Positions 255 to 20,491 of a DNA stretch of 21,096 nucleotides are shown one piece after another. Under the pieces are notes generated by a model that did not search any database, was not told where the DNA came from, and worked only from the letters and a program-made list of their open reading frames with translations. Made by a program: the position numbers and the translations under genes. This DNA is from Haliangium sp. GTDB taxonomy: Bacteria; Myxococcota_A; Polyangia; Haliangiales; Haliangiaceae. Where the stretch lies: the NCBI RefSeq assembly GCF_050303215.1, contig NZ_JBNLBH010000019.1, forward strand, positions 128,001 to 149,096. Direction: 5' to 3'. The first letter of the stretch is position 1, and each line of letters starts with the position of its first letter.

Positions 255-1079
255 ATGAAGCGACCCAGCGTTCTTTGGTTCCATGCCGGCGTGGCTGCGC
301 TCTGTCTCGGCTGCACGAGCGCCGCACCGGCTCCCGACACCACCCCTGAGGCGCCTTCGGCGACCGAGGCCAGCGCCGAGCCCGGCGGTGACAGCGCTAC
401 CGCCACCAGCGGCGACGACCTCATCCTCGCCGCCGTGAACGCGCCCCGCGACCCTCGTGACACCGGCCGCGACGAGATCCGCAAACCCGTCGAGTTGCTG
501 CGCTTCTTCGACGTGGCCGAGGGCATGCGCGTGGCCGATCTGGGCAGCGGCCCGGGATACACCGCCAGCCTGGTGGCCGCCGTGGTCGGGCCCACGGGCA
601 AGGTCTTCGCCCAGAACCCGGCCGAGTGGAGCCAGTTCTCGTGGCCGGCGTGGGAGGAGCGCAAGGCCAACGGCCGCCTGCCCCAGGTCGAGACCGTCGA
701 GCGCCCCTTCGACGATCCCCTGCCGCCCGAGGCCAGCAACCTCGACCTGGTGCTCAGCGTGCTCATCTACCACGACGTGGCCTACATGCCCTTCGATCGC
801 GACCAGATGAACAAGAAAGTCTTCGCCGCGCTCGTGCCCGGCGGCATCTACGGCGTCGTCGATCACTACGCTGTCGACGGTGCCGGGGTGTCGGTGGCCG
901 AGTCTCTGCATCGCATCGAGAAGGCCATCGTCATCGCCGAGGTCGAGGCCGCCGGCTTCGAACTGGTCGACGAGGCCGACTTCCTCCGCGACCACGACGA
1001 CGACCGCACCTCCAAGGCCTGGAACAACCCCCAGCCGGTCACCGACCGCTTCGTGCTCAAGTTCCGCAAGCCCGAGTGA
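255..1079 (+). CDS. Exported (lipoprotein-type signal) class I SAM-dependent methyltransferase, COG4798-like
   Basis: This is the frame of track ORF 72..1079. The internal ATG at 255 gives the N-terminus MKRPSVLWFHAGVAALCLGC-TSAAP: a positive n-region, a hydrophobic core and an L-G-C lipobox-like motif. The upstream 61 codons of the longer ORF are not protein-like. Motif I of class I SAM methyltransferases is present (VADLGSGPGYTASLV, a GxGxG loop), with downstream acidic and aromatic positions typical of the fold. Stop codon at 1077-1079. Confidence 0.75.
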   Translation: MKRPSVLWFHAGVAALCLGCTSAAPAPDTTPEAPSATEASAEPGGDSATATSGDDLILAAVNAPRDPRDTGRDEIRKPVELLRFFDVAEGMRVADLGSGPGYTASLVAAVVGPTGKVFAQNPAEWSQFSWPAWEERKANGRLPQVETVERPFDDPLPPEASNLDLVLSVLIYHDVAYMPFDRDQMNKKVFAALVPGGIYGVVDHYAVDGAGVSVAESLHRIEKAIVIAEVEAAGFELVDEADFLRDHDDDRTSKAWNNPQPVTDRFVLKFRKPE

Positions 1080-1114
1080 TGTCGGGCGGGTCCGGGCGGT
1101 CGGTGCGGGCTCGA

Positions 1115-1148
1115 GGCGAGCGCTCGCCGGCCCTCGGACGGCCGTACG
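1115..1148. terminator. Palindromic GC-rich elements between convergent genes; possible bidirectional terminator hairpins
   Basis: Perfect 14-nt palindrome GGCGAGCGCTCGCC at 1115-1128, followed by the palindrome CCGTACGG at 1142-1149. They lie in the 115-nt gap between the stop of the + gene (1079) and the stop of the - gene (1195). No U-tract is present, so this is not a canonical intrinsic terminator. Confidence 0.25.
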
Positions 1149-1194
1149 GGCTCTCACCTGGGCCGGCGCCCAGCGCGCCCGAGCGGCTCAGGGA

Positions 1195-1905
1195 TCAGCC
1201 GAGGCGGAGGTCTTCCGACTCGAGCACCACTGCCTCGGTCGTGGCGTCCAGGGCTCGCGCCACCAGCGCGCGCGCCAGCACCTGGTTGCTGGTCGAGCGA
1301 TAGCGGGCGCGCAGGCGCCGGGCGCCGAGCAACCCGGCCACGGCCAGAAGCCCATCGCTCACCGCTGCGCCCACGCGCTCACCTGGACGGTCCTCGTCGC
1401 GATCGGACCCGGTGATGAACGACGGCCGCGCGATCAGGTACGGCAACCCGCACCCGCGCAGCGCCTCCTCTGCCCGCCACCGCGCCTGCATGTACGCACC
1501 CGACGCGCGCGCGCTCACGCCTGCAGACGACAGGTACACGAAGCGCGGCCCGGCGCCCGTGGCCACCGCTGCGTCCATGAGCAGCTTGGCCAGGCCGTAG
1601 TCGACGCTCTCGTACGATTCCTCGCGGCCCTCGCGCGCGGCCATCCGGCCGCGCTTGCGGGTCGTGCCCAACAGCGCGAACACGTGGCTCGGCACCAAAG
1701 CGCCCAGGCGGGCCTGCATGTCGGCCGGCGTCCACGGGGTGATATCGACCTCGGCCCCGAGGCCACCGAGGCGGTCACGCCACGCCTCCAGCCGGGGCGA
1801 GTCCGGCCGCACATGCGCCACCGCGCGGACGCCGCGCTCGACCAACGCAGCCACTACCTCGCGGCCGGTGTACCCCGTGGCCCCTGCGACGAAGGCGATG
1901 CTCAT
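1195..1905 (-). CDS. NAD(P)-binding Rossmann-fold protein (atypical SDR / NmrA-like family)
   Basis: The ATG at 1905 gives the N-terminus MSIAFVAGATGYTGREVV, a classic GxxGxxG dinucleotide-binding motif immediately after the start, as in NmrA/atypical SDR proteins. The track ORF extends to a TTG at 1950 and an ATG at 1947 (MMARASARRGVGYAV...), but neither has a better RBS, so the start is uncertain within about 45 nt. The protein is about 236 aa with Rossmann-like alternation of hydrophobic strands and helices. Confidence 0.7.
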   Translation of the reverse strand: MSIAFVAGATGYTGREVVAALVERGVRAVAHVRPDSPRLEAWRDRLGGLGAEVDITPWTPADMQARLGALVPSHVFALLGTTRKRGRMAAREGREESYESVDYGLAKLLMDAAVATGAGPRFVYLSSAGVSARASGAYMQARWRAEEALRGCGLPYLIARPSFITGSDRDEDRPGERVGAAVSDGLLAVAGLLGARRLRARYRSTSNQVLARALVARALDATTEAVVLESEDLRLG

Positions 1906-2015
1906 GACCGCGTAGCCTACGCCACGGCGTGCGGACGCGCGAGCCATCAAAGCGGTATGGTCCGGGCCATGTTCACCTGGGTCGCCCTACCTGGCCGCGC
2001 TCGCCGGAGCACGCG

Positions 2016-3614
2016 GTGATCCGCGACCTCCACCTCTTGGCGACCGCAGCCGCCGAGGCCTGCGCCGCCACCACCGACGCGGCCGAGAAGAAGTCCTGGG
2101 GCCAGTACTTCACCTCGGTCGAGGTAGCCGGGTTCATGGGCTCCCTCGTGGCTGTAGGCGCCGCGACGGCGCCGATCCGAGTGCTCGATCCCGGCGCGGG
2201 CACGGGCATCCTCGGCCTCGCCGCGGCCGCCGCCCTGCTCGCCCGGGGCGCCGAGGCGGTTCGGCTCACCGCGATCGAAGCGCACCCCGGGGCTCGCGCC
2301 CACCTCCACGAGTCGCTCCGGCTCGCCCGCGAGGCCAGCGCGGGCCGGCTCGACGCCAAGGTCATCGGCGCCGACTTCCTCGACCTGGCCCCGCCGGGCC
2401 TCGACGCCTCTCTATCCTCCGAGCCCTTCGACGTGGTGATCGCCAATCCACCCTACTTCAAGCTGAGCCCGCGCGACCGCCGCGGCGGCGACGCGCCCAA
2501 CATCTACGCCCGCTTCATGGAGATTTCGGCCGGGCTGCTGCGCGAGCGCGGCCAGCTCTTGTTCATCGTGCCGCGCAGCTTCGCCTCGGGCCGCTACTTC
2601 GAGCGCTTCCGCCGGGCGTTTCATCGCCGCATGAGCCTGCACCGCGTGCACGTCTTCGAGTCTCGGCGCGACCCGTTCAAGGCCCACGGCGTGCTGCAAG
2701 AGAACATCATCGTCGACTACCGCAAGGCCACGCGCGCCCCGTCGTCGGTCACGATCACTAGCTCGCGCGGCGCTCGTGATCTCGACCGACCGACCAAAGT
2801 CGAGGCCAGCCGGAGGCTGCTCCTGCCCGATCACGCACCCCACGCCGTCCTGCGCCTGCCCACATGCGACGAGGATCTGGCGCTGCTCGCCCGCCTAGAG
2901 CGATGGCGCGATGACCTCGGCAGCTACGGGCTCGCAGTATCCACCGGGCCGGTGGTGCCGTTCCGGGCCACGGACCAGCTCGTGCACACGGCGAGCGCCG
3001 CCACAGCGCCGCTGCTGTGGATGCAGCACGTGCGCGCGGGCCGAGTGACCTGGCCCCTCGGCGCCGGGTTCCGTAAACCCGAGCACATCATGCGCTCAGC
3101 CCCATCCAAGCTCCTGGTCACGAACCGCACCTATGTGCTCCTGCGCCGCATCTCCGCCAAAGAGGACCGGCGTCGGCTCACCGCCGCGGTGCTGCACGCA
3201 GGCGCCCTGCCCGGCGACGTACTCGGGCTGGAGAACCACCTCAACTTCATCCATCGCCCCGGCGGCGAGATCGACCAAAACGAGGCCACCGCCCTGGCCG
3301 CGCTGCTGAGCTCCTCGCTGTTCGACCGATACATCCGCATGGTGAGCGGAAGCACTCAGATCAACGCCACCGAGCTCCGGACGCTGCCGCTACCGCCGCG
3401 ACCGGACGTGATCGAGCTCGGCCGGCAGCTCCTGCGCCGACCCGAGCTCGCCCAGCAGACCCAGCTCGACGAGCTCATGCGAAGCCTGACCGGCGCCAAC
3501 ACCAATCCCCACGCGACGAGCCCGGGTGCTGCACCGCACGCGCCATCGCAACCGCCCAGAGAGACGGCGCACGCGGCGCGCCGACGCGTCAGCGATGCTC
3601 ATCGAGGCGGATGA
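2016..3614 (+). CDS. N6-adenine DNA methyltransferase, gamma-class (Eco57I/TaqI-like MTase domain plus C-terminal target-recognition region)
   Basis: Ordered motifs of the gamma-class N6-adenine methyltransferases are present: GQYFTS(VEVAGFM) (motif X), VLDPGAGTGILG (motif I, SAM binding) and VIANPPYFK (motif IV, catalytic NPPY). About 330 aa follow and probably form the target-recognition domain. The track ORF begins at GTG 1929 with no RBS and no in-frame ATG before the domain. GTG at 2016 is preceded by GGAG with a 6-nt spacer and leaves about 28 aa before motif X, so I prefer it. The true start is 1929 or 2016. The 3' end overlaps the convergent pafA-like gene by 26 nt. Confidence 0.8.
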   Translation: MIRDLHLLATAAAEACAATTDAAEKKSWGQYFTSVEVAGFMGSLVAVGAATAPIRVLDPGAGTGILGLAAAAALLARGAEAVRLTAIEAHPGARAHLHESLRLAREASAGRLDAKVIGADFLDLAPPGLDASLSSEPFDVVIANPPYFKLSPRDRRGGDAPNIYARFMEISAGLLRERGQLLFIVPRSFASGRYFERFRRAFHRRMSLHRVHVFESRRDPFKAHGVLQENIIVDYRKATRAPSSVTITSSRGARDLDRPTKVEASRRLLLPDHAPHAVLRLPTCDEDLALLARLERWRDDLGSYGLAVSTGPVVPFRATDQLVHTASAATAPLLWMQHVRAGRVTWPLGAGFRKPEHIMRSAPSKLLVTNRTYVLLRRISAKEDRRRLTAAVLHAGALPGDVLGLENHLNFIHRPGGEIDQNEATALAALLSSSLFDRYIRMVSGSTQINATELRTLPLPPRPDVIELGRQLLRRPELAQQTQLDELMRSLTGANTNPHATSPGAAPHAPSQPPRETAHAARRRVSDAHRGG

Positions 3615-5298
3615 CCTTGCCGGCAAAGGGTTTGCCGACCCGGATCCGGTCCCAAGACACCCTGACCTTGGCCTGACGGCGACCGAGCTCTCGGATCATG
3701 CGACTCCGGGCCCGGGCCGAGCCCGGTGACGGCGGATCGTGCATGGCCTGCGCGATCTCGTCCGGGCTCCATATGTGCGAGACCAGCCCGGCTCGGTCGA
3801 GGCGGGCGAAGTAACCACCGCCAAGCTCGTGGTACTTGAGGTCGATCTTCTTGCGCGCGGCCGGGCTCAGCTCGCGCCCGGCGGTGTCGAGCAGATAGCG
3901 CTTGGTGATCCAGTCGAGTTGGCCCAGTAGCGGGCTTTCGCTCACCTCGTGCTCGCCGCGGGCGAGCGCGTCGAGGGCGTCGAGCGTGCGCTGCCACAGC
4001 GCCAACAGCTCCACCGCCTCGATCGACGTCACCTCGGCCTGGTCCACGAAGGCCCGGGCTCGCTCCAGGTAGGCTCGCTGGATGTCGAGGGCGCGCATGG
4101 GCGAGCCGCCCACCACCTCCACCTCGGCCTGCAGGCTGGGGTCGGAGATGATGTGGCGCAGGGCCTCGACCGGCCGGCGCAGCCGCGGCAGACCGGCCAG
4201 GGCCCCAGCCTCGGCCATGTCGATGACCAGGGCGGTGGTGGCCAGCTTGAGGTAACCGGCGACCTGAGCTGGGTTGGCGTCGGCGAGGCCGAGCTGCATG
4301 CGCTGGCGGCGCCGGAATAGACCCAGGAACGAGCGCAGGTCGAGGTAGGCCACCCGCAGCGCGGCCTTGCACAGGTTGCCGGCGTCGAACACGGCGCGGT
4401 CATGCTGGCCTACCCACAGTCGCACCACCCGGCGGATCGTCGGGCCTTTTTCGGACAGTCCAAAAACGCCCTCGTCGTCGAGGGTGCCGGCGCCGGAGAG
4501 CACCGGCCGGGACATGAGGAAGGCCAGCCCATCCCGACGCACCCGGCGAAAGGCGACCAGCCGGAACAGCGCGAAGAATGGCCACAGCACCGGCGCCCAC
4601 AGCACGTGGCCATAGAGCACATATTCGATCCGGCCGAGCGCGCGCACGATCCGGCGCGACGGGGTAGTGAAGGCCACGGCCGCGGGCACGCCGCTCCGGC
4701 GCAGACTCGGGCTGACCACCGCCGCCAGGCCGACGCCGAAGAGCAGCACCAACCACGACACCGCCAGCGCCACGAAGCTAACCCAGCTCACCACCGCGCA
4801 CACCAGGATGATCGGGATCAGGGCGGCCACGCCCGCGCGCCATAGCCACAGCGTCGGGCCGGTCCCGATGTCGGCCTCGAAGTTCTCCTGGGCACCGTAG
4901 ACGTGCCCTTCGGCGTCGCGGCAGTTCTCCAGCAGGCCTAGGCTGCCGCGGTAGCCCTGATGGGCCAGGATGTGCTCGGCCGCGGGCAACGCCTGGATGA
5001 GCAGGGCCCGCTGCGCGCATTGATACAGCAGGCCTTCTTCGGGGCCACGGCACTCCGGGGTCGCGCCCTCGACCAGACCGCCGTCGGGGGCCGTGGGCAG
5101 ATACTCGTAGGCGAAGGCGCCCCCGTTCTCGACAAAGAACTGCTCGCGCGCCCAGTCCCCTTTGCGGGTCAGGACCAGGTCGCCGATAGCCTCCCGCACA
5201 GCGCCGTAGACCACGTTATTGTCGGGCGATTCACTGCCCGGCAGCGACGTGAAGCGGATCGCGTACTCGCTCTCCAGGCCCAGCAGGCGGCGCAGCAT
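3589..5298 (-). CDS. pafA: Pup-ligase/deamidase family protein (PafA/Dop homologue, glutamine-synthetase-like carboxylate-amine ligase fold) with a ~115-aa multi-helix hydrophobic insertion
   Basis: Direct similarity to Mycobacterium PafA along the whole length. Pairs (this ORF vs PafA): GLESEYAI vs GIETEYG (N-terminal catalytic Glu); ENGGAFAYEY...GATPEC vs [27 protein letters not shown] vs YGCHENY; FLMSRPVLSGAGT vs FLVTRQLICGAGK; ALDIQRAYLERA vs ALDIQREYYTRA; QLDWITKRYLL vs EIDWVIKRKLF; IDLKYHEL vs LDLAYHDI; DEIAQAMHDPP...ARARSRMI vs EEIAEAVDQPP...TRARLRGEFI. Between the HENY-like motif and the GAGK-like motif, residues ~146-262 (nt 4513-4863) replace PafA's ~18-aa loop with three to four strongly hydrophobic helix-length segments. 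The ATG at 5298 is preceded by GAGGGG. Stop codon at 3589-3591. Confidence 0.75.
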   Translation of the reverse strand: MLRRLLGLESEYAIRFTSLPGSESPDNNVVYGAVREAIGDLVLTRKGDWAREQFFVENGGAFAYEYLPTAPDGGLVEGATPECRGPEEGLLYQCAQRALLIQALPAAEHILAHQGYRGSLGLLENCRDAEGHVYGAQENFEADIGTGPTLWLWRAGVAALIPIILVCAVVSWVSFVALAVSWLVLLFGVGLAAVVSPSLRRSGVPAAVAFTTPSRRIVRALGRIEYVLYGHVLWAPVLWPFFALFRLVAFRRVRRDGLAFLMSRPVLSGAGTLDDEGVFGLSEKGPTIRRVVRLWVGQHDRAVFDAGNLCKAALRVAYLDLRSFLGLFRRRQRMQLGLADANPAQVAGYLKLATTALVIDMAEAGALAGLPRLRRPVEALRHIISDPSLQAEVEVVGGSPMRALDIQRAYLERARAFVDQAEVTSIEAVELLALWQRTLDALDALARGEHEVSESPLLGQLDWITKRYLLDTAGRELSPAARKKIDLKYHELGGGYFARLDRAGLVSHIWSPDEIAQAMHDPPSPGSARARSRMIRELGRRQAKVRVSWDRIRVGKPFAGKVIRLDEHR

Positions 5299-5322
5299 GG
5301 CCCCTCGGACACACGCCGGGGG

Positions 5323-5499
5323 CTACTCGCCGCCCTCGGGAACCACGGTCTCGCGCAAGTACGCCTCGGCCCCCTCGACGGCGTCGACGGCGATCTCGGC
5401 CACCGCCTCGGCGACCCGATCACGGGCCGACGGCGCCGCGCTGTCGTCATCCCGCCGGAGGTCACGGGCAACATTCGATGGAGTGTGAGCAGGTCGCAT
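5323..5499 (-). CDS. pup: Pup-like prokaryotic ubiquitin-like protein, 58 aa, C-terminal Gly-Gly-Glu
   Basis: The ATG at 5499 is preceded by a strong RBS (CAGGAGAGACTC-ATG). It encodes MRPAHTPSNVARDLRRDDDSAAPSARDRVAEAVAEIAVDAVEGAEAYLRETVVPEGGE. The C-terminal third aligns with Mycobacterium Pup (EIDDVLEENAEDFVRAYVQKGGQ vs EIAVDAVEGAEAYLRETVVPEGGE): an acidic helix, AE-x-[FY]-[VL]-R-x-x-V and a terminal GG[QE]. The N-terminal half is low-complexity and acidic, like Pup. The track ORF starts at an upstream GTG (5529) with no RBS. The gene ends 24 nt upstream of the pafA-like gene on the same strand. Confidence 0.65.
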   Translation of the reverse strand: MRPAHTPSNVARDLRRDDDSAAPSARDRVAEAVAEIAVDAVEGAEAYLRETVVPEGGE

Positions 5500-5503
5500 G
5501 AGT

Positions 5504-5510
5504 CTCTCCT
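5504..5510 (-). promoter_or_regulatory. Shine-Dalgarno (AGGAGAG) for the pup-like gene
   Basis: The plus-strand CTCTCCT at 5504-5510 is AGGAGAG on the minus strand, 4 nt upstream of the ATG at 5499. Confidence 0.5.
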
Positions 5511-5883
5511 GGCTGACGTCAACCGACACAGGCCGATACGCGCAGATCGCGCCGACTGGACAGTCCGTCCCGTACGAGGCTCAGTGTACAGGGTCCCGCC
5601 CACGTTGGCCACGACCACGCAACGTCGGCCCGGCCTGACCTAGCCCCGCCGCGGCGTGTCCCGACCACACCATGGACCGAACTTCGTCCCCGGCCTCGCC
5701 TCGGGCCGCCAGGCTGGCCTAGACAGCACTCGATCTGTTCATCCGTCGCGGCACCTACACTGGAATGCACACCGATCTTTCTCGCCAGAGCAGCTTGGTG
5801 GCCGCCCCCAACCAGCGTCTGTATCTCAATGACAGCCGACTGCCGTCACGCGACGTACACACCGGCAAGACATGTACGTCGTC

Positions 5884-6933
5884 TCAGGTATCCGAACTCA
5901 TCACCTCAGCGACGCTTCCGGCCGCGAACAGGCGCTCGTACCACGTGTCGAGTTCAGCCTGGTCGGCCGCCTTGATGCGGGCCTGCGCCGCCCGTGAGAC
6001 CCGTCCGAATCGGGCCCTCAGCAACCGGATGAGCCGCTCCTGCTCGGCCTCACGACGACCCTGCTGTTGGCCTTCCTTCCGGCCCTTTTCGAGACCCTGT
6101 TCGAGGCCCTGTTCGCGGCTCTTGTAGACGATCTCGTCGTAGGTGTTCGTAAACACTTGGTGTGCCATGGGACTGACCTCGGTCTTCAGGAAGCGAGCCA
6201 TGTGCTCTCGCTCGATGCGGGCAACGCTCATAGTATACGTGAACAGCATGCCCAGGGCAGCCACTCCGGAGGGGGCCTCGGCCAGGTCCGCGAGCAGGGT
6301 TGCGATGTCGCGACCCATCGCGGCCAATAGGTCTGGCTCGCGACGGGCGTAAGTGAGCGCCCACAAGATCACCTGCGGAATCGCGCCACTCACTCGCTGC
6401 CACAGGGCCTCATCGTCATCGGGCAGCAATTCCTCCAGCACGAACGCATACCGCGGCAGGTGCTCGCCAATGGCGTCGAGCGTCCGGTGCGGGCAGTCGT
6501 ACACCTCGTCCATCGTGATCGATGCACGCCAGGGGATGCCGTGGTACATGACGATAGGCAGGATCACGGGCACTCGGATCGCGTCGGGGTGCTCGCTGCG
6601 GTGCTCGTCCCAGATCGCGCTCAGGTAACGCAGGATGCGTACCGGCATCAGCACCTGGGGCTTGCTCTGGTGTTCCATCAGCACGTAGATGTACGCCTTG
6701 CTCGGAGCACCCGCGTCGTCATCAGCGGCGGCGTCCAGGGGCACGCGCATGAGCAGATCCGTGAGCTGCTCGCGCAGGTGCTCGTCGATGAAGGTCCGCT
6801 TCTCTACCTTCACACGACGAAAATCGACCTGCCCAGATAGCCCACGCGGTAGCAACGCTCGGAGCAATGCGCGGGCGTTCCGAGGTTTTGAGAAAATGCC
6901 TCGAAACAGCCGATCATGTGGTGTGCTAACCAT
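5884..6933 (-). CDS. Rpn-family (YhgA-like / Transposase_31) PD-(D/E)XK recombination-promoting nuclease
   Basis: The N-terminus TPHDRLFRGIFSKPRNARALLRALLP closely matches the E. coli RpnA N-terminus ([26 protein letters not shown]), and the YVLMEHQS core motif matches IYVLIEHQS. The C-terminal region has the family's Gly-spaced repeats (EQGLEQGLEKGRKEGQQQGRREAEQERLIRLLRARFG). The ATG at 6933 is preceded by AGGGGA with a 5-nt spacer. The gene's GC content is visibly lower (~60%) than neighbouring genes. Confidence 0.85.
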   Translation of the reverse strand: MVSTPHDRLFRGIFSKPRNARALLRALLPRGLSGQVDFRRVKVEKRTFIDEHLREQLTDLLMRVPLDAAADDDAGAPSKAYIYVLMEHQSKPQVLMPVRILRYLSAIWDEHRSEHPDAIRVPVILPIVMYHGIPWRASITMDEVYDCPHRTLDAIGEHLPRYAFVLEELLPDDDEALWQRVSGAIPQVILWALTYARREPDLLAAMGRDIATLLADLAEAPSGVAALGMLFTYTMSVARIEREHMARFLKTEVSPMAHQVFTNTYDEIVYKSREQGLEQGLEKGRKEGQQQGRREAEQERLIRLLRARFGRVSRAAQARIKAADQAELDTWYERLFAAGSVAEVMSSDT

Positions 6934-7222: not shown

Positions 7223-8566
7223 CTAGGGGGCGCAGCCTACGGCGCCGGCGTCGGTCGAGGGCGGGGGGCTGAGGACCGGGCTGCCGGTGAGCTGGCAGTC
7301 GGTGTTGGCGTTGAGGCGGATGCGGCCCACGCTGCCACCGCCACCACCGCCGCCGGCGTCGGGGCCGGGGCCACCGACGCCAGCGTTGCCGTTGTTGGGG
7401 GGGGACGTGCCGGCGCCGCCGTTGCCGCCGTCACCGCCGCTGGCTGAGCCGTCGCGTCCGCCCTTGGCCATGAGCGCGTCGTTACTCCGGCCGTCGTCGC
7501 CGGAGTTCTCCAGGTCGGAGTCGTTCTCCGAGCCGCCCTCGCCACCTCCGCCGCCGTTGGCGGTCACGGCCGCGCTGTTGCCAATGCGGAGGGAGTCGGC
7601 CTCGAGCAGGACGGAGCCGCCGGAGCCGCCACCGCCGCCGCCGTCACGCAGCGCGCCGCCTCCTCCACCGCCGCCAGCCGCGCTGATGAACGCGCCGACG
7701 CTGAGTTGATCGGCAGCCGAGATCTGGATCCCGCCGCCACCTCCACCGCCGTTGCCACCACTGCTGAAGTCACCTGCGCCGCCGTGGCCGCCGGCGCAGC
7801 CGCCGCGCAGGGGCACGATGGCGTCGTTGCCGTTGGCCTGGCCGCCATCGCCGCGGTTCGCGTTGCTGCCGCCCTGGCCGCCCAGGGCGCCGTTGGTGCT
7901 GTAGCCGCCGCCTCCTCCGCCTCCTCCGTTGTCGCCGTTCTTGAAGCCGTCCTGGCCGGTGCCGCCGCCGCTGCCACTGGTGCCGCATACGCTCGCGAGG
8001 GAGCCGCCGGGACCGGGCGTACTGCCCGTGGCTCCGGCGTCGAGGTTGCCATCGATGGTGGCGTCGCCGAAGACGGCAAAGATCACCGAGCGATTGCCGA
8101 CGAGGGTAAGCGAGCCGGTGGCCGTGATCGTGACGTCGAGCATGGGCAGGATGACCAGGTCGCTGCTCGTAACCGGGACCGGCTCGGGCTGGCCGCACCA
8201 CTGAGTGAAGGTCGCGGTGGTCGAGTCGAAGGTGGCGGCGCAGTCAAGAGAGACTGCCACCGTCGGGGTCAAAGTGTCGGGATCGAAATTGCTCGGAACG
8301 TAGGGGAAGGGCGGAGCCGGCACTGCGTCCAGCGGCGCAGCATCCGGCGGGGCCGCGTCGGGCCCCCCGGCGCCGGGGCTTGCATCGGGGCTGTCGGCAT
8401 CAGGACCCATGGGAGGCTCGGCATCGATCGGGTCCGTCCCGCCATCTGCCTGGCGCGAGGGCAGATCCTCGATGCCCAGGGCCTGCACGCAGCCACCCAG
8501 CGCAACCGTCAACGCCAGACATCCGCCGGCAAACTTAGCCATCGTTCTCGTACCGCTTGTCGTCAT
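7223..8566 (-). CDS. Glycine-rich secreted lipoprotein (low-complexity poly-Gly/Asn/Ser blocks; possible beta-helical surface protein)
   Basis: The N-terminus (MTTSGTRT)MAKFAGGCLALTVALGGCVQ is a lipoprotein signal with an LGGC lipobox; the alternative ATG at 8542 gives the same signal. The mature protein begins with a Pro/Asp/Ala-rich linker, followed by ~300 aa dominated by Gly runs (GGGGGGGG, GGGGGGG) interspersed with N, S, D and short hydrophobic stretches, ending ...DCQLTGSPVLSPPPSTDAGAVGCAP. The gene is same-strand and 20 nt downstream of the preceding gene. Confidence 0.7.
   Translation of the reverse strand: MTTSGTRTMAKFAGGCLALTVALGGCVQALGIEDLPSRQADGGTDPIDAEPPMGPDADSPDASPGAGGPDAAPPDAAPLDAVPAPPFPYVPSNFDPDTLTPTVAVSLDCAATFDSTTATFTQWCGQPEPVPVTSSDLVILPMLDVTITATGSLTLVGNRSVIFAVFGDATIDGNLDAGATGSTPGPGGSLASVCGTSGSGGGTGQDGFKNGDNGGGGGGGGYSTNGALGGQGGSNANRGDGGQANGNDAIVPLRGGCAGGHGGAGDFSSGGNGGGGGGGIQISAADQLSVGAFISAAGGGGGGGALRDGGGGGGSGGSVLLEADSLRIGNSAAVTANGGGGGEGGSENDSDLENSGDDGRSNDALMAKGGRDGSASGGDGGNGGAGTSPPNNGNAGVGGPGPDAGGGGGGGSVGRIRLNANTDCQLTGSPVLSPPPSTDAGAVGCAP
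7397..7404 (-). repeat. G8 homopolymer on the plus strand (C8 on the coding strand) inside the Gly-rich lipoprotein gene
   Basis: The plus strand reads GTTGTTGGGGGGGGACG. It encodes ...GTSPPNN... (ggc acg tcc ccc ccc aac aac). This is an 8-nt homopolymer within a coding sequence. Confidence 0.6.
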
Positions 8567-8586: not shown

Positions 8587-9615
8587 TCAGAACCGCCACG
8601 AGGCCTGGACCCCGTTCCACTGCTGGCCGATGACCGGCTCGATCCGCACGCCGGACGCAGTCTCTGTCGGGGCAGGTGACTGCTCGGGGGCGTTCATGAA
8701 CCACAGCGCGACCCCGGCGCCGAGCCCGACCACGCCGACGATCAAGGACGCTGTGGCCAGGTTGGCGTCGCCGCGGGCGTCGCTGCGCAGGGCCTGGCTG
8801 GCGTCGTAGTCCGCGATCGCGCAGGTCATGTACTCGTCGACGGTGCACAGGTCTTCGGCGTCTCTGTATCGGCCCCGGGCGCGCAAGCCGAACACGACAC
8901 CGACGATGACACCGGCCGCGCCCACGGCGCCGCTGCCGAGCGCGAGCTTGCGGCCGAGCGGCATCGGGGTGCCTTCGCCGCGTTCCACGTCATCCACGCC
9001 GGCCGGCGTGACCGGAACGACAGGCGACTCGGGCTCGGACACTGCGACCTCGAACTCGGGCACGGTGACGCGCTCGGTGCTGCCCGCGCCGGCGACGGTC
9101 ACGGTGACCTCGAAGGGCTCGGCGTCGGGCACTTGGGCGGTGATGACGTGCTGGCCGGGATCGACGGCGATGGGCTGGCCCCACTGCGCCGGGTCCACGA
9201 TCACGTCGCCGCGTCGCACGGTCGGCGCGCCGTGCCGCGCGCTCTCCGTCACCTCGATCACCAGGAACGAGAGCTGCGGCGCCAGCGCGGCGATCTGCTC
9301 TTCGGCGTAGGCGGCGCGCTGCTCATCATCGGCTTCGCGGGCCATGGCCTGGGCGCGCCGATACACCTCGACCGCGGTGGCTGGTTGCTGGTTGAGTTCG
9401 CGGCACTTGGCCAGGTTGAGCAGGGCGCCGACGCTGGCCTCGGCCTCGTGGCTGGCTTCGAACTTGCTGCACGCCTCGGCGAACTTCCTCTGCGCGAGCA
9501 GCTCGCGTCCTTCTTCGAACAGGCGGTCGGCCTCGGTCTGCTGGGCCCAGCTCAGGCTCGGCAAGAAGCAGACCACGAACAAGACCGTCATGGCGCATCG
9601 ATGCAGTGTCCCCAT
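8587..9615 (-). CDS. Secreted protein with N-terminal TPR-like helical pair, PEGA-like beta domain and two C-terminal hydrophobic helices
   Basis: The ATG at 9615 is preceded by AGGGGA with a 5-nt spacer. The signal peptide is MGTLHRCAMTVLFVVCFLPSLSWA|QQ. The mature N-terminus (ADRLFEEGRELLAQRKFAEACSKFEAS...LLNLAKCREL...AVEVYRRAQAMA) is TPR-like. The middle (VRRGDVIVDPAQWGQPIAVDPGQHVITAQVPDAEPFEVTVTV) resembles a PEGA beta-sandwich. Two hydrophobic segments follow (LALGSGAVGAAGVIVGVVFGL; LATASLIVGVVGLGAGVALWF). The gene is same-strand and 24 nt downstream of the kinase gene. Confidence 0.6.
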   Translation of the reverse strand: MGTLHRCAMTVLFVVCFLPSLSWAQQTEADRLFEEGRELLAQRKFAEACSKFEASHEAEASVGALLNLAKCRELNQQPATAVEVYRRAQAMAREADDEQRAAYAEEQIAALAPQLSFLVIEVTESARHGAPTVRRGDVIVDPAQWGQPIAVDPGQHVITAQVPDAEPFEVTVTVAGAGSTERVTVPEFEVAVSEPESPVVPVTPAGVDDVERGEGTPMPLGRKLALGSGAVGAAGVIVGVVFGLRARGRYRDAEDLCTVDEYMTCAIADYDASQALRSDARGDANLATASLIVGVVGLGAGVALWFMNAPEQSPAPTETASGVRIEPVIGQQWNGVQASWRF

Positions 9616-9639: not shown

Positions 9640-11913
9640 CTAACGACCTTGCAGCGCGGGATCGTTAATCTCTTTCATGATGGCCGGCTGCTTGGGCTCC
9701 AACTCGACCCCGTGCCGCAGGCAGACCTGGGCCAGCGCGGCTCGGCGCGCGCGCGGCGTCCGCTTGTAGTATCGCTTTGCTCGGCCCTCGTCCTTCAGCG
9801 AGCACGCGGCCATCCCGCATATCGTGAGCGCATCTCGATTCCGGGGCTCGAGTTCCAGCGCATCGTTGCAGTGCCGAAGGGCGACGCCGTACTGCCCGCT
9901 CTTGGCGGCCGTCCGGGCATCGTCCATCAACTCATCGACCCGCTTCTTGCGCTGCACGGGCGACGGTCGCGATGGTTGCTTCGTCTCGGCCTCGGCCTTG
10001 GCCGCACGGCGGCAATCGTCCGCGGCCGTGGCGGCCTCGTCCCATTCGTCCGGCATCGCCTTGGCCAACTCGGCCAGGTCGTCACAAGCGTGGGCGCGCG
10101 CGTGCTTTGTCACCTTTTCGACCACCTCGGCGTGGGCTCGCTCGTAGGCCCCGCGGGCCTGGTCGTACACGACCGAGCCCTCTTCGATGGCGAGCAGGTG
10201 CTCGCGCGCAGCTTTGTACTGCTGGGCATCGAGCGCCTCGCCCATCGCGGCCAGGGCCTTGGCGAACCGCGCCTCTCTCGTCGCGGTGTCCACCAAGGAC
10301 TTCGCCTGCTCGTGGTTCGGATCGCCGGCCAGGATCTCCTTGCCGAGACGCTGTGCCGTCGCCCAGTCGTGCTCGCCGAGCGCTCGCTTCGCCGCCGCGA
10401 GCGCGGCCTCGCCGTCGTCCGCCCCGATGCCCTCTCCGCCGGCACCGGCCGCGGCCTGGGCCTCCTGCTCGGCCGCCTCTTCCGGGCTGACCGCGGCGCT
10501 CGGTTCACCGATGTCAGACTGCTCGGGCAGCAACACGACCGGCTCCGAGGGTTCCTCCGAGGGCCAGAGTGCAGCCACGCCGACCACGCCGACCAGCACT
10601 GACGCCGACACGGTCACGAGGAGTCGCCGCCGCCGCGGCCGCTGCGATACCGGCAGCCGCTGGGAGGCGGCCGTGCGCAGCGTCGTCTGTCCGCCCGATG
10701 CAGCGGCATGCCCAACCGGCGATGAAGCCCCGGCCGCGGCCCACGGCTGGGCAGCGGCGCCGGAAGCATGCGGCTGGTATCCGTCATGGGACGGTGCACG
10801 CGCCGGCGTCCGGGCCGGGTCAGGTCCCGTGGCCGCCTGGGGTGGCACCCGCACGGCGGGGATCCCCTGCGGCACGGTGGCCACCGGCGGGGCGCTGCTC
10901 GCTCGCCTAGGGGCGCCGGGGGTTACCGCAGCCGGTCCGGGGGAGGCGATGGGCGCCGAGGCCCGGGCGGCGACCGGCTCGCCATCCTCATCCCACCGCT
11001 TTTGCTGCGGCACACGCTGCGTAGGTCCGTGGGGATCGTACTCCGGCGGCGGCGCCAGCGAGGGAGCGCGGCGAAACGCCCGCAGCGCTTCCCCGAACTC
11101 GGCGATCGTGGCGTAGCGCTCGTCGGGCGCCTTGGCCATGCCCTTGGCGACGATGGCCTCGAGCGCGGGCGGCACCGAGGGCTCGAACCGGCGCATGGGC
11201 GGCAGCGGCTCCTTCATGTGCCCGACGATCATGTCGCCCGCGCCTTCGCCGATGAAGGGCGGCCGCCCGCACACGGTTCGGAACAGCACGCAGGCCAGCG
11301 AGTAGATATCGCTGCGGTGATCGACCCGGCCGGCGCCGCGGCACTGCTCGGGCGACATATAGGCCGGGGTGCCCATCATGCTGCCGGTGCTGGTCAACAA
11401 GTTGCCGCCGGTCAAGGGCTCGGCCAGCTTGGCGATGCCAAAGTCGAGGATCTTGGACCGCTCGCCGGCCTCCATCTCCTCGTCGGAGGCCAGGAAGATG
11501 TTACCGGGCTTGAGGTCGCGGTGAACGATGCCGGCCTCGTGCGCGGCCGCCAACGCGCTGGCGCACTGGCGCACGATGCGGACCGCGTCGGACACCGGTA
11601 TGCGCTTCACCCGGCGCAACCGCTCCTCCAGGGACTCGCCGTGGAGCAGCTCCATCACGATGTAGGCGCTGTTGTCGGTGTGATAGTCGAAGTCGGAGAT
11701 CTTGACGATGCCGGGGTGATTGACGGCCCCGGAGGCGCGCGCCTCGTTGAAGAAGCGCTGCACGATCTCGGGCTTCTGGGACAGCTCGGGCTTGAGCATC
11801 TTGAGCGCGACGTTGCCCCCGATGCGGGTGTGCTCGGCGAGATAGACCATCCCCATCCCGCCGGTGCCGAGTACTTTGATGAGGCGATAGCGCCCCACTG
11901 TTTGGCCAAGCAT
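9640..11913 (-). CDS. Hanks-type Ser/Thr protein kinase with single TM segment and C-terminal (periplasmic) TPR/Sel1-like repeat domain
   Basis: Kinase subdomains are present: G-loop LGTGGMGMVYLA, VAIK-like VALKML, catalytic loop HRDLKPGNIFL, DFG (DFGIA), APE-like (PAYMSPEQ) and a subdomain XI Arg. This is followed by a Pro/Ala-rich linker, the TM segment RRRRLLVTVSASVLVGVVGVAALW, then about 300 aa of helical repeats. The track ORF starts at TTG 11979. The first ATG (11913, MLGQTVGRYRLIKVLG...) leaves 6 aa before the G-loop and is my preferred start. Confidence 0.85.
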   Translation of the reverse strand: MLGQTVGRYRLIKVLGTGGMGMVYLAEHTRIGGNVALKMLKPELSQKPEIVQRFFNEARASGAVNHPGIVKISDFDYHTDNSAYIVMELLHGESLEERLRRVKRIPVSDAVRIVRQCASALAAAHEAGIVHRDLKPGNIFLASDEEMEAGERSKILDFGIAKLAEPLTGGNLLTSTGSMMGTPAYMSPEQCRGAGRVDHRSDIYSLACVLFRTVCGRPPFIGEGAGDMIVGHMKEPLPPMRRFEPSVPPALEAIVAKGMAKAPDERYATIAEFGEALRAFRRAPSLAPPPEYDPHGPTQRVPQQKRWDEDGEPVAARASAPIASPGPAAVTPGAPRRASSAPPVATVPQGIPAVRVPPQAATGPDPARTPARAPSHDGYQPHASGAAAQPWAAAGASSPVGHAAASGGQTTLRTAASQRLPVSQRPRRRRLLVTVSASVLVGVVGVAALWPSEEPSEPVVLLPEQSDIGEPSAAVSPEEAAEQEAQAAAGAGGEGIGADDGEAALAAAKRALGEHDWATAQRLGKEILAGDPNHEQAKSLVDTATREARFAKALAAMGEALDAQQYKAAREHLLAIEEGSVVYDQARGAYERAHAEVVEKVTKHARAHACDDLAELAKAMPDEWDEAATAADDCRRAAKAEAETKQPSRPSPVQRKKRVDELMDDARTAAKSGQYGVALRHCNDALELEPRNRDALTICGMAACSLKDEGRAKRYYKRTPRARRAALAQVCLRHGVELEPKQPAIMKEINDPALQGR

Positions 11914-12031
11914 CCTGTCCGGCAGGGTACCACGCCTGTCTCGGTTCAAGAACCTCTCTGTTCGTTCTGACCGTATCAAGCCGTACCAAGGCTACACCGC
12001 CCGCCCCGGGCCGCTCCGGACGGGAGGCTGC

Positions 12032-20491
<8,460 letters not shown>

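Follow-up and report, generated by a model that had tools for sequence, protein, structure and literature searches.

Pupylation has been studied almost entirely as a route to the mycobacterial proteasome. The stretch of DNA analysed here, 21,096 nucleotides from Haliangium sp. (Myxococcota) and referred to below as the window, contains two adjacent genes, one for a 58-residue protein ending in Gly-Gly-Glu (GGE) and one for a 569-residue enzyme of the Pup_ligase family, which together probably constitute a self-contained, proteasome-independent and membrane-anchored module for the conjugation of a Pup-like tag. The closest described systems are those of Iyer, Burroughs and Aravind 2008 (Biol Direct 3:45; PMC2588565), who, in the passages of their paper that deal with them, report Pup together with a ligase that carries a transmembrane insertion ('4 TM segments after core strand 4') in the myxobacterium Plesiocystis pacifica and the planctomycete Rhodopirellula baltica, name these two as the organisms whose Pup and ligase genes stand apart from the proteasome genes, and propose that membrane proteins are pupylated there. 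A single-copy planctomycete paralogue that is 29-31% identical to both PafA and Dop was subsequently used as an outgroup to these enzymes (Hecht et al. 2020, PMC7947786). A system of this kind was thus already predicted in 2008, in the passages cited, and its enzyme already used as an outgroup in 2020, and no new principle is involved. What is added here is the scale on which the GGE tag is conserved, the finding that 90 loci have no proteasome genes close by, a list of invariant substitutions in the active site and a negative result on sequence homology with Pup.

The GC content of the window is 0.73 and that of the gene pair 70%. Both genes of the pair are read from the minus strand and are arranged as follows.

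5504..5510, minus strand: Shine-Dalgarno sequence AGGAGAG, read from the sequence, 4 nt ahead of the ATG of the small gene
5323..5499, minus strand: small gene for the Pup-like 58-residue protein with the tail ...YLRETVVPEGGE, from the open reading frame (ORF) and its translation, stop codon at 5323-5325 included
5299..5322, minus strand: spacer of 24 nt between the small gene and the ligase gene, read from the sequence, with GAGGGG right before the ATG of the latter
3589..5298, minus strand: gene for the 569-residue Pup_ligase-family enzyme (Pfam PF03136), of a third clade, neither PafA nor Dop

An earlier sequence-only reading of this DNA had described a 58-residue ORF ending in GGE, equipped with a strong ribosome-binding site and situated 24 nt upstream of the 569-residue ORF, and each of these elements is found where it had been placed. 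The small ORF starts with ATG in a good Shine-Dalgarno context (CCAGGAGAGACTC-ATG) and translates into MRPAHTPSNVARDLRRDDDSAAPSARDRVAEAVAEIAVDAVEGAEAYLRETVVPEGGE, with VVPEGGE at the C-terminus; the C-terminal residues of the 58 are ...EAYLRETVVPEGGE. An alternative in-frame GTG at 5529 would give a protein of 68 residues. The same two genes, with the small one at 58 residues, were called independently on a Logan contig (L001) from this organism. Across related loci the spacers between the small ORF and the ligase gene mostly measure 3-41 nt, and the two genes probably form one operon. A sigma-70-like promoter was not found upstream of the small gene, a result that is uninformative in Myxococcota. 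In the databases the small protein is annotated as 'hypothetical protein'; for the large one NCBI has an entry from Haliangium sp. with 100% identity, under the name 'proteasome accessory factor PafA2 family protein'.

Sequence searches with so small a protein are nearly blind. A word-indexed search with the 58-residue protein returned only the protein itself, and phmmer against 1.84 billion representatives detected no Pup and only two true relatives (P0123 and P0124), the other matches, to a repetitive mucin-like protein of 1570 residues and to a repeat protein, being spurious. The regions upstream of ligase homologues were inspected instead, in loci drawn from a genome collection, from exact-protein look-ups and from a metagenome scan; the scan of the genome collection with the single ligase sequence by itself gave only four close relatives. 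Of 86 loci scanned automatically, 80 have a GGE-ending ORF that precedes the ligase gene at a distance of no more than 200 nt, and by inspection four of the six misses also carry one (two further upstream, one masked by an ORF in another frame and one at a truncated contig end), which raises the count to about 84 of 86. The arrangement of a small GGE ORF and a ligase gene is far beyond chance, and the conserved two-gene module that had been read from the Haliangium sequence is borne out by these loci, even though their ligases are merely 30-69% identical. The 75 non-redundant small proteins share the consensus L..vL..I..DA...P..YL.ETvVP.GGE, in which G56, G57 and E58 are invariant; GGE is conserved in orthologues, as the original proposal required, and a GGQ ending occurs in none. 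The conservation of this upstream ORF indicates that the small gene is real, that it is inherited together with the enzyme and that its terminal Glu is under absolute constraint. In one locus (L053, ~100-355) the tag ORF reads past the GGE (...IVPEGGELLRR...), which reflects either a sequencing error or a variant that needs cleavage to expose the GGE.

Modelled from its single sequence with AlphaFold2, the small protein consists of two helices (residues 7-20 and 25-51) and an extended tail (52-58) and has no globular fold (predicted TM score, pTM, 0.45). It shows what the Pup passages of Iyer et al. 2008 list as characteristic, namely a C-terminal G-G-[EQ], a length of 50-90 residues and a position beside a gene of the Pup-ligase family. 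Contrary to what the sequence-only reading had led one to expect, no profile search linked it significantly with Pup. At E <= 10 none of the 75 small proteins matches Pfam PF05639 (Pup); in the database used, a precomputed match to this family is attached to genuine Pups but not to the small protein. Likewise, no Pup chain was found when the profile of the small-protein family was run against the Protein Data Bank (PDB). The hhalign comparison with Pups from Acidimicrobiia gives P values of about 0.03-0.04, with 8 of 200 column-shuffled controls scoring equally, and does so in register over 30-31 columns, such that the tag comes to lie on the PafA-binding helices of Pup, with helix 1 on DDLLDEID and helix 2 on AEEFVR, and GGE falls on GGE; the Pup side of this comparison is narrow, as the search seeded with an Acidimicrobiia Pup returned only Pups at least 88% identical to it and did not broaden the HH profile. 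The small protein is thus Pup-like by design and by context, and not a proven member of the Pup family.

The assignment of the 569-residue protein to the Pup_ligase family, in contrast, is clear. The match to Pfam PF03136 has an E-value of 1.2e-62 and a score of 212.8 bits (cut-off 25) and is of full length, spanning residues 4-552 on profile positions 1-440 of 441. The scores with the NCBIfam models of PafA (TIGR03686, 148 bits against a cut-off of 551.3) and of Dop (TIGR03688, 124.6 bits against 492.3) are far below threshold. In a Foldseek search the AlphaFold2 model of the enzyme, built from 21 homologues (pLDDT 88.2, pTM 0.89), has Dop (7oyh, 4b0r) and PafA (4bjr) on top, with E-values from 3e-24 to 1e-23, and its target-normalised TM scores to Dop and PafA structures are 0.73-0.81. 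A HMMER profile of the enzyme family run against PDB chains scores 184 bits with Dop structures and 156 bits with PafA. When 405 shared alignment columns are compared, the identity of the family amounts to 29% with PafA and 28% with Dop, as against 44% between the latter two. The enzyme belongs to a third clade of the Pup_ligase family, neither PafA nor Dop, in agreement with the use of the planctomycete protein as an outgroup by Hecht et al. 2020. The clade is widespread, with hundreds of homologues spread over Myxococcota and a Vicinamibacteria genome, and is present in Planctomycetes as well (Hecht et al. 2020, PMC7947786). Given its roughly equal distance from PafA and Dop and the outgroup position of the planctomycete version, it may resemble the state that preceded the split into ligase and depupylase.

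The enzyme also carries what is its defining feature, overlooked in the sequence-only reading.

4543..4869, minus strand: hydrophobic helical insert of ~108 residues (residues ~144-252), with no counterpart in the PafA/Dop alignment

The insert sits right behind the active-site strand that ends in QENFE and is hydrophobic in every homologue checked. In this position, just past core strand 4 on the C-terminal side, it agrees with the transmembrane insertion in the relevant passage of Iyer et al. 2008. Hydropathy averaged over the family reveals one strong block at residues ~150-195, of sufficient length for a membrane hairpin of two helices, and another, weaker, at ~228-248; the AlphaFold2 model has helices at 147-159, 161-195, 215-233 and 235-248. 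Judged by these features the insert should anchor the enzyme in the membrane, and an Arg-rich stretch past the first block would be compatible with a cytoplasmic location of both ends.

For the active site, residues were mapped with the alignment of 21 family members, a MAFFT alignment that included actinobacterial PafA and Dop, and HMMER alignments to 4b0t and 4bjr. The residues that discriminate PafA from Dop were taken from Hecht et al. 2020 (PMC7947786), and reference positions from the Dop of Acidothermus, in which Glu8, Glu10, Tyr92, Glu99, His155 and His241 are Mg ligands and Asp94 is the catalytic residue (PMC8599861). Four segments stand out.

5266..5280, minus strand: GLESE, residues 7-11, the GhExE nucleotide/Mg motif; G7, E9 and E11 are invariant in 21 homologues
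5104..5127, minus strand: NGGAFAYE, residues 58-65; Glu65 lies at the position of the catalytic Asp in NGARLYLD of PafA/Dop
4882..4899, minus strand: YGAQEN, residues 134-139; invariant Gln137 lies at the Mg ligand His155 (YGCHEN in PafA/Dop)
4273..4305, minus strand: QRMQLGLADAN, residues 332-342, corresponding to RRLHVIVGDSN; invariant Gln335 lies at the Mg ligand His241

It had been claimed that the enzyme aligns with PafA and Dop motif for motif. This holds for the GhExE motif (role from PMC7947786 and PMC8599861), where GLESE is aligned by both MAFFT and HMMER with the GLENE/GIETE of PafA and Dop, for the counterpart of Dop Glu99 (Glu77) and for the arginine of the TRQ motif (Arg264). The latter two residues and Asp340 are invariant in the 21 diverse homologues and Asn342 is nearly so; QRMQLGLADAN also keeps the Arg, Asp and Asn of RRLHVIVGDSN. 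The claim fails elsewhere. Glu65, in the same register by MAFFT and HMMER as PafA Asp57/64 and Dop Asp94, is invariant and acidic but is not Asp, and the loop that follows it is about 7 residues longer than in PafA and Dop. Dop Tyr92 aligns with Ala63, the neighbouring Tyr64 being invariant. The full set of six Mg ligands of Dop is accordingly not present: Glu9, Glu11 and Glu77 are kept, while His155 and His241 are replaced by Gln137 and Gln335. In place of the RDEPHAD motif there is a GNLxK segment together with a 13-residue insert. As to the signatures that set PafA and Dop apart, the Dop-loop (~37 residues) is absent, the distance from GhExE to NGG being 47 residues as compared to ~68 in Dop and ~39 in PafA, and the V-D-H-A motif around the Asp of Dop is absent from the family alignment, as is the alpha-loop signature of Dop. 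The PafA signature, L-D-V-G-S around the Asp and H.WEG.SSA..RS in the alpha-loop, is missing as well; the family has Y-E-x-L-P followed by the longer loop, and SEKGPxIRR. In all, the clade appears to carry its own conserved variant of the active site.

Neither the window nor the additional 5 kb covered by contig L001 contains any proteasome gene or AAA ATPase gene. The wider family gives the same picture: with Mpa, PrcB and PrcA queries taken from a canonical, Pfam-verified actinobacterial control locus (L008; mpa-dop-pup-prcB-prcA-pafA), tblastn detected these genes in none of 90 family loci (775 kb), as compared to 11-12 of 13 PafA/Dop control loci. This upholds the initial observation that proteasome genes are missing from the surroundings of the pair. 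Nor did any flank of a family locus contain a second PafA/Dop-like region. Since the tag always ends in Glu and a second paralogue is missing from these flanks, direct ligation without a Dop step, as first proposed, is indeed the natural reading. The flanking genes vary between all lineages examined, so that the two-gene pair is the sole unit; the underlying clustering of neighbours relied on crude ORF picking, with antisense shadow ORFs at 70% GC, and was used only to establish that no neighbour is shared across lineages. Serine/threonine (Ser/Thr) protein kinases occur within ~8 kb of the pair in about 12 related loci, which we judge to be chance in kinase-rich genomes. Neither the ligase nor the small protein matched PADLOC-DB v2 at E <= 0.1.

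How might such a pair work? We suggest that the 58-residue protein, a helical and non-globular peptide with a flexible VPEGGE tail, would use its two conserved helices to dock on the catalytic domain of the enzyme, on the cytoplasmic side. With ATP and Mg the enzyme would then phosphorylate the gamma-carboxylate of the C-terminal Glu, as do PafA and the carboxylate-amine ligases of the glutamine-synthetase fold, and the acyl-phosphate would be attacked by an amine, for which a lysine epsilon-amino group is the likeliest candidate, so that an isopeptide bond would form. As the tag is encoded with its terminal Glu, a deamidase would not be required. The same enzyme may also take the tag off; PafA itself can depupylate and transfer Pup, according to the part of PMC5358908 concerned with this activity. 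The hydrophobic hairpin adjoining the active-site strand would put the enzyme on the inner face of the cytoplasmic membrane and points to membrane or membrane-proximal targets, and the lack of a linked proteasome suggests that the outcome is probably regulatory, or mediated by another protease, rather than proteasomal degradation. On balance, the most likely function of the pair is to tag targets close to the membrane, with no involvement of the proteasome. Shown here are the family and fold of the enzyme, its insert, the conservation of the pair and of the GGE end and the lack of proteasome genes in the vicinity; that the enzyme is active as a ligase, which acceptor it uses, how it lies in the membrane and what the biological result is are inferred.

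Several points weigh against this proposal of a membrane-anchored, proteasome-independent conjugation module. The catalytic Asp is Glu, two Mg-binding His are Gln and RDEPHAD is gone, from which it follows that the chemistry or the acceptor may differ from that of PafA, and the mapping of these residues rests on sequence alignment only. Homology of the small protein with Pup is not demonstrable by HMMER and at best marginal by HH-suite. One locus (L023) has no GGE-ending small ORF in its 17.6 kb and is the only one that lacks it altogether. The genome of the Haliangium strain is covered here by 21 kb plus 5 kb, and a proteasome, Mpa or Dop may be encoded elsewhere in it. Finally, a search of the accessible literature found no experimental work on this clade.

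What if the acceptor is not a protein at all? The enzyme could then transfer the small protein to an amine at the membrane surface, such as the headgroup of phosphatidylethanolamine (PE) or another small amine, and thereby lipidate or otherwise derivatise it, as in the formation of Atg8-PE or in gamma-glutamyl peptide synthesis by GCS2 enzymes. The pair would in this case represent a distinct third branch, in which a single membrane-embedded enzyme acts as writer, and perhaps as eraser, of a GGE peptide on membrane-surface amines in an Atg8-like manner, and not on soluble proteins bound for a proteasome. A different acceptor chemistry at the membrane, if true, would account for the invariant Glu-for-Asp and Gln-for-His exchanges. 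Also in keeping with it are the location of the membrane hairpin immediately behind the active-site strand, the overall dissimilarity of the active site to that of PafA, RDEPHAD included, the lack of a conserved partner or target gene nearby and the fact that the closest relatives of the fold outside the Pup system make gamma-glutamyl bonds to small amines (1tt4 and 1va6 in the Foldseek search; Iyer et al. PMC2588565, in the passages on fold relatives). However, all characterised members of PF03136 act on protein lysines, and the long conserved helical region of the tag is typical of protein-protein docking, which leaves this alternative a small chance.

The substitutions in the active site, together with the failure of the small protein to show significant homology with Pup, might also be taken to mean that no conjugation takes place, either because the small protein serves the enzyme as a partner in regulation or assembly or is the precursor of a processed peptide, or because the enzyme, with metal ligands and catalytic residue replaced, is a catalytically altered pseudo-ligase. 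We consider this improbable. If the Glu did not enter the active site, there would be little reason for a terminal GGE to be conserved absolutely in distant lineages, and the substituted residues are themselves invariant, which argues for a working site under selection.

There is equally a case, albeit a thin one, for an enzyme that works mainly as a hydrolase, that is as a Dop-like amidase or depupylase, and not as a ligase. Many homologues are named 'Pup amidohydrolase' by JGI, the family profile scores slightly higher with Dop than with PafA structures (184 against 156 bits), and the spacing past the acidic residue as well as the A-T-P triplet are partly Dop-like. Yet a tag that always ends in Glu leaves nothing to deamidate, no ligase paralogue is found nearby that would make conjugates for removal, and the Dop-loop is absent (47 against ~68 residues between GhExE and NGG). 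Moreover, the NCBIfam models rank PafA above Dop (148 against 125 bits), and overall the enzyme is equidistant from both. A predominantly hydrolytic role thus appears quite unlikely.

The remaining alternative concerns the two genes that border on the pair in the window.

1929/2016-3614, plus strand: Eco57I-type N6-adenine DNA methyltransferase (PADLOC MTase_II, E 4.6e-102)
5884-6933, minus strand: Rpn/YhgA-like gene (Transposase_31 and DUF4351, by profile match), GC 0.63 as compared to ~0.70-0.75 elsewhere

The methyltransferase gene is convergent with the ligase gene, their 3' ends overlapping by 26 nt, and a restriction partner for it is not recognisable in view; the Rpn/YhgA-like gene is possibly a recent insertion beside the pair. 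The sequence-only reading was right in placing both genes at the flanks of the pair, but their presence is incidental, as they stand beside it only in this organism and their adjacency therefore says nothing about the function of the pair. That the pair belongs with them to a defence or mobile island, as might be supposed from their adjacency in the window, from the classification of the methyltransferase as a type II MTase by PADLOC and from the GC content of the Rpn gene (0.63 against ~0.70), is contradicted by the comparative data and hardly credible, since neither gene of the pair has a PADLOC match, no other locus, including the one with a 67% identical ligase, shows methyltransferase or Rpn beside the pair, the GC content of the pair equals that of the surrounding genome, and the flanks differ between lineages.

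The rest of the window and a few related loci offer some further observations. On the far side of the methyltransferase, an ORF at 255-1079 (plus strand) has a weak 'mad2' methyltransferase match in PADLOC. A 379-residue ORF at 880-2019 (plus strand) was rejected as a gene and is in all probability a shadow ORF, as a 236-residue NAD(P)-binding protein (Epimerase/NAD_binding_10) was called on L001 on the opposite strand, at 1195-1905 (minus). Beyond the Rpn/YhgA-like gene follow, all on the minus strand, two ORFs of 447 (7223-8566) and 342 residues (8587-9615) with no significant match in Pfam, NCBIfam or PADLOC, the latter with a single sub-threshold TPR_2 match, then a 779-residue Ser/Thr protein kinase with a C-terminal TPR-like region (9640-11979), and an ORF of 2819 residues (12032-20491) with many TPR and ARM-like repeats (TPR_8, TPR_1, TPR_19, ARM_TT21), which is very large for a bacterial gene. 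In locus L023 a small hydrophobic, membrane-like ORF (~7600-8000) takes the place immediately upstream of the ligase gene. Three loci (L058, 6121-6654; L059, 2616-3161; L065, 6182-6736) have, directly downstream of the ligase, the gene for a conserved membrane protein with multiple spans and ~180 residues (184). These loci represent the lineage in which the tags end in VPHGGE and are the only loci seen with a linked membrane protein, which is probably the 'linked membrane protein' mentioned in the passages of Iyer et al. 2008.

The value of the Haliangium pair lies in its being a clean and well-delimited example. Its targets would show what Pup-like tagging does when no proteasome is involved, and the minimal two-gene form could serve as a membrane-localised tool for proximity tagging.

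How, then, does the pair relate to the systems already known? With PafA (TIGR03686; 4B0T, 4BJR) the Haliangium enzyme shares the fold, the GhExE motif, the two-domain architecture, the absence of a Dop-loop and the adjacent small protein with a GG-E end. It differs from PafA in its low identity (~29%), in that neither the WEGxSSA alpha-loop nor RDEPHAD is conserved, in the 108-residue membrane insert and in lacking the mpa-prcBA context. Dop (TIGR03688; 4B0R, 7OXY) is its best structural and profile match; both have no extra residue after the acidic catalytic position and both have Ser/Ala-Thr-Pro ahead of a conserved Glu. Different from Dop however, the enzyme has no Dop-loop, its tag never ends in Gln and it has no ligase partner. 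The small protein in turn resembles Pup (PF05639) in its length of 50-90 residues, in its non-globular build with two short amphipathic helices followed by GG-E and in the location of its gene beside that of the enzyme, but has the conserved Arg/Glu position one residue further away from the GGE, and its tail reads VPxGGE where that of Pup reads QKGG[EQ], with no similarity between the two that HMMER could detect.

UBact, reportedly described by Lehmann and colleagues in 2017, is said to be a Pup-like protein of Nitrospirae and other Gram-negative phyla with a Gly-Glu end. Its C-terminus is R-[TS]-G-[EQ]. Two of our control loci, from Nitrospirales (L010, ~11080-11283) and Fraserbacteria (L014, ~2630-2817), have small ORFs ending in ...RYRQRTGE and ...RYRQRSGE, respectively, beside Dop-like genes, and we take these tags to be of the UBact type, distinct from Pup and from the myxobacterial tag. 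The Haliangium tag is like UBact in being a Pup-like tag with a Gly-Glu end outside the Actinobacteria. However, it ends in VPEGGE, and while the enzymes of the UBact-type loci are 497-512 residues long, have no membrane insert and are ~42-43% identical to PafA and Dop, the Haliangium enzyme is only ~30% identical to them. Pupylation independent of the proteasome has reportedly been found by Kuberl and co-workers in Corynebacterium, where it is said to serve the disassembly of ferritin by ARC. There, too, Pup is encoded with a terminal Glu, in an organism that is not known to have a 20S proteasome; yet Corynebacterium employs canonical PafA, Dop and the ARC ATPase, whereas the Haliangium enzyme is single, divergent and predicted to be bound to the membrane, with no ARC gene close to it.

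The nearest counterpart by far is the pair of Iyer et al. 2008. Some differences from what the passages on that pair describe are apparent: the linked membrane-protein gene is not next to the pair in the Haliangium window, hydropathy here reveals two clear transmembrane helices and a weaker pair instead of four clear ones, and the exchanges of Asp for Glu and of His for Gln do not figure in those passages. In its main traits, on the other hand, the Haliangium pair agrees with what they report, as it combines a small protein ending in G-E with a single adjacent ligase gene, a transmembrane insert after strand 4 and freedom from proteasome linkage, and does so again in a member of the Myxococcota.

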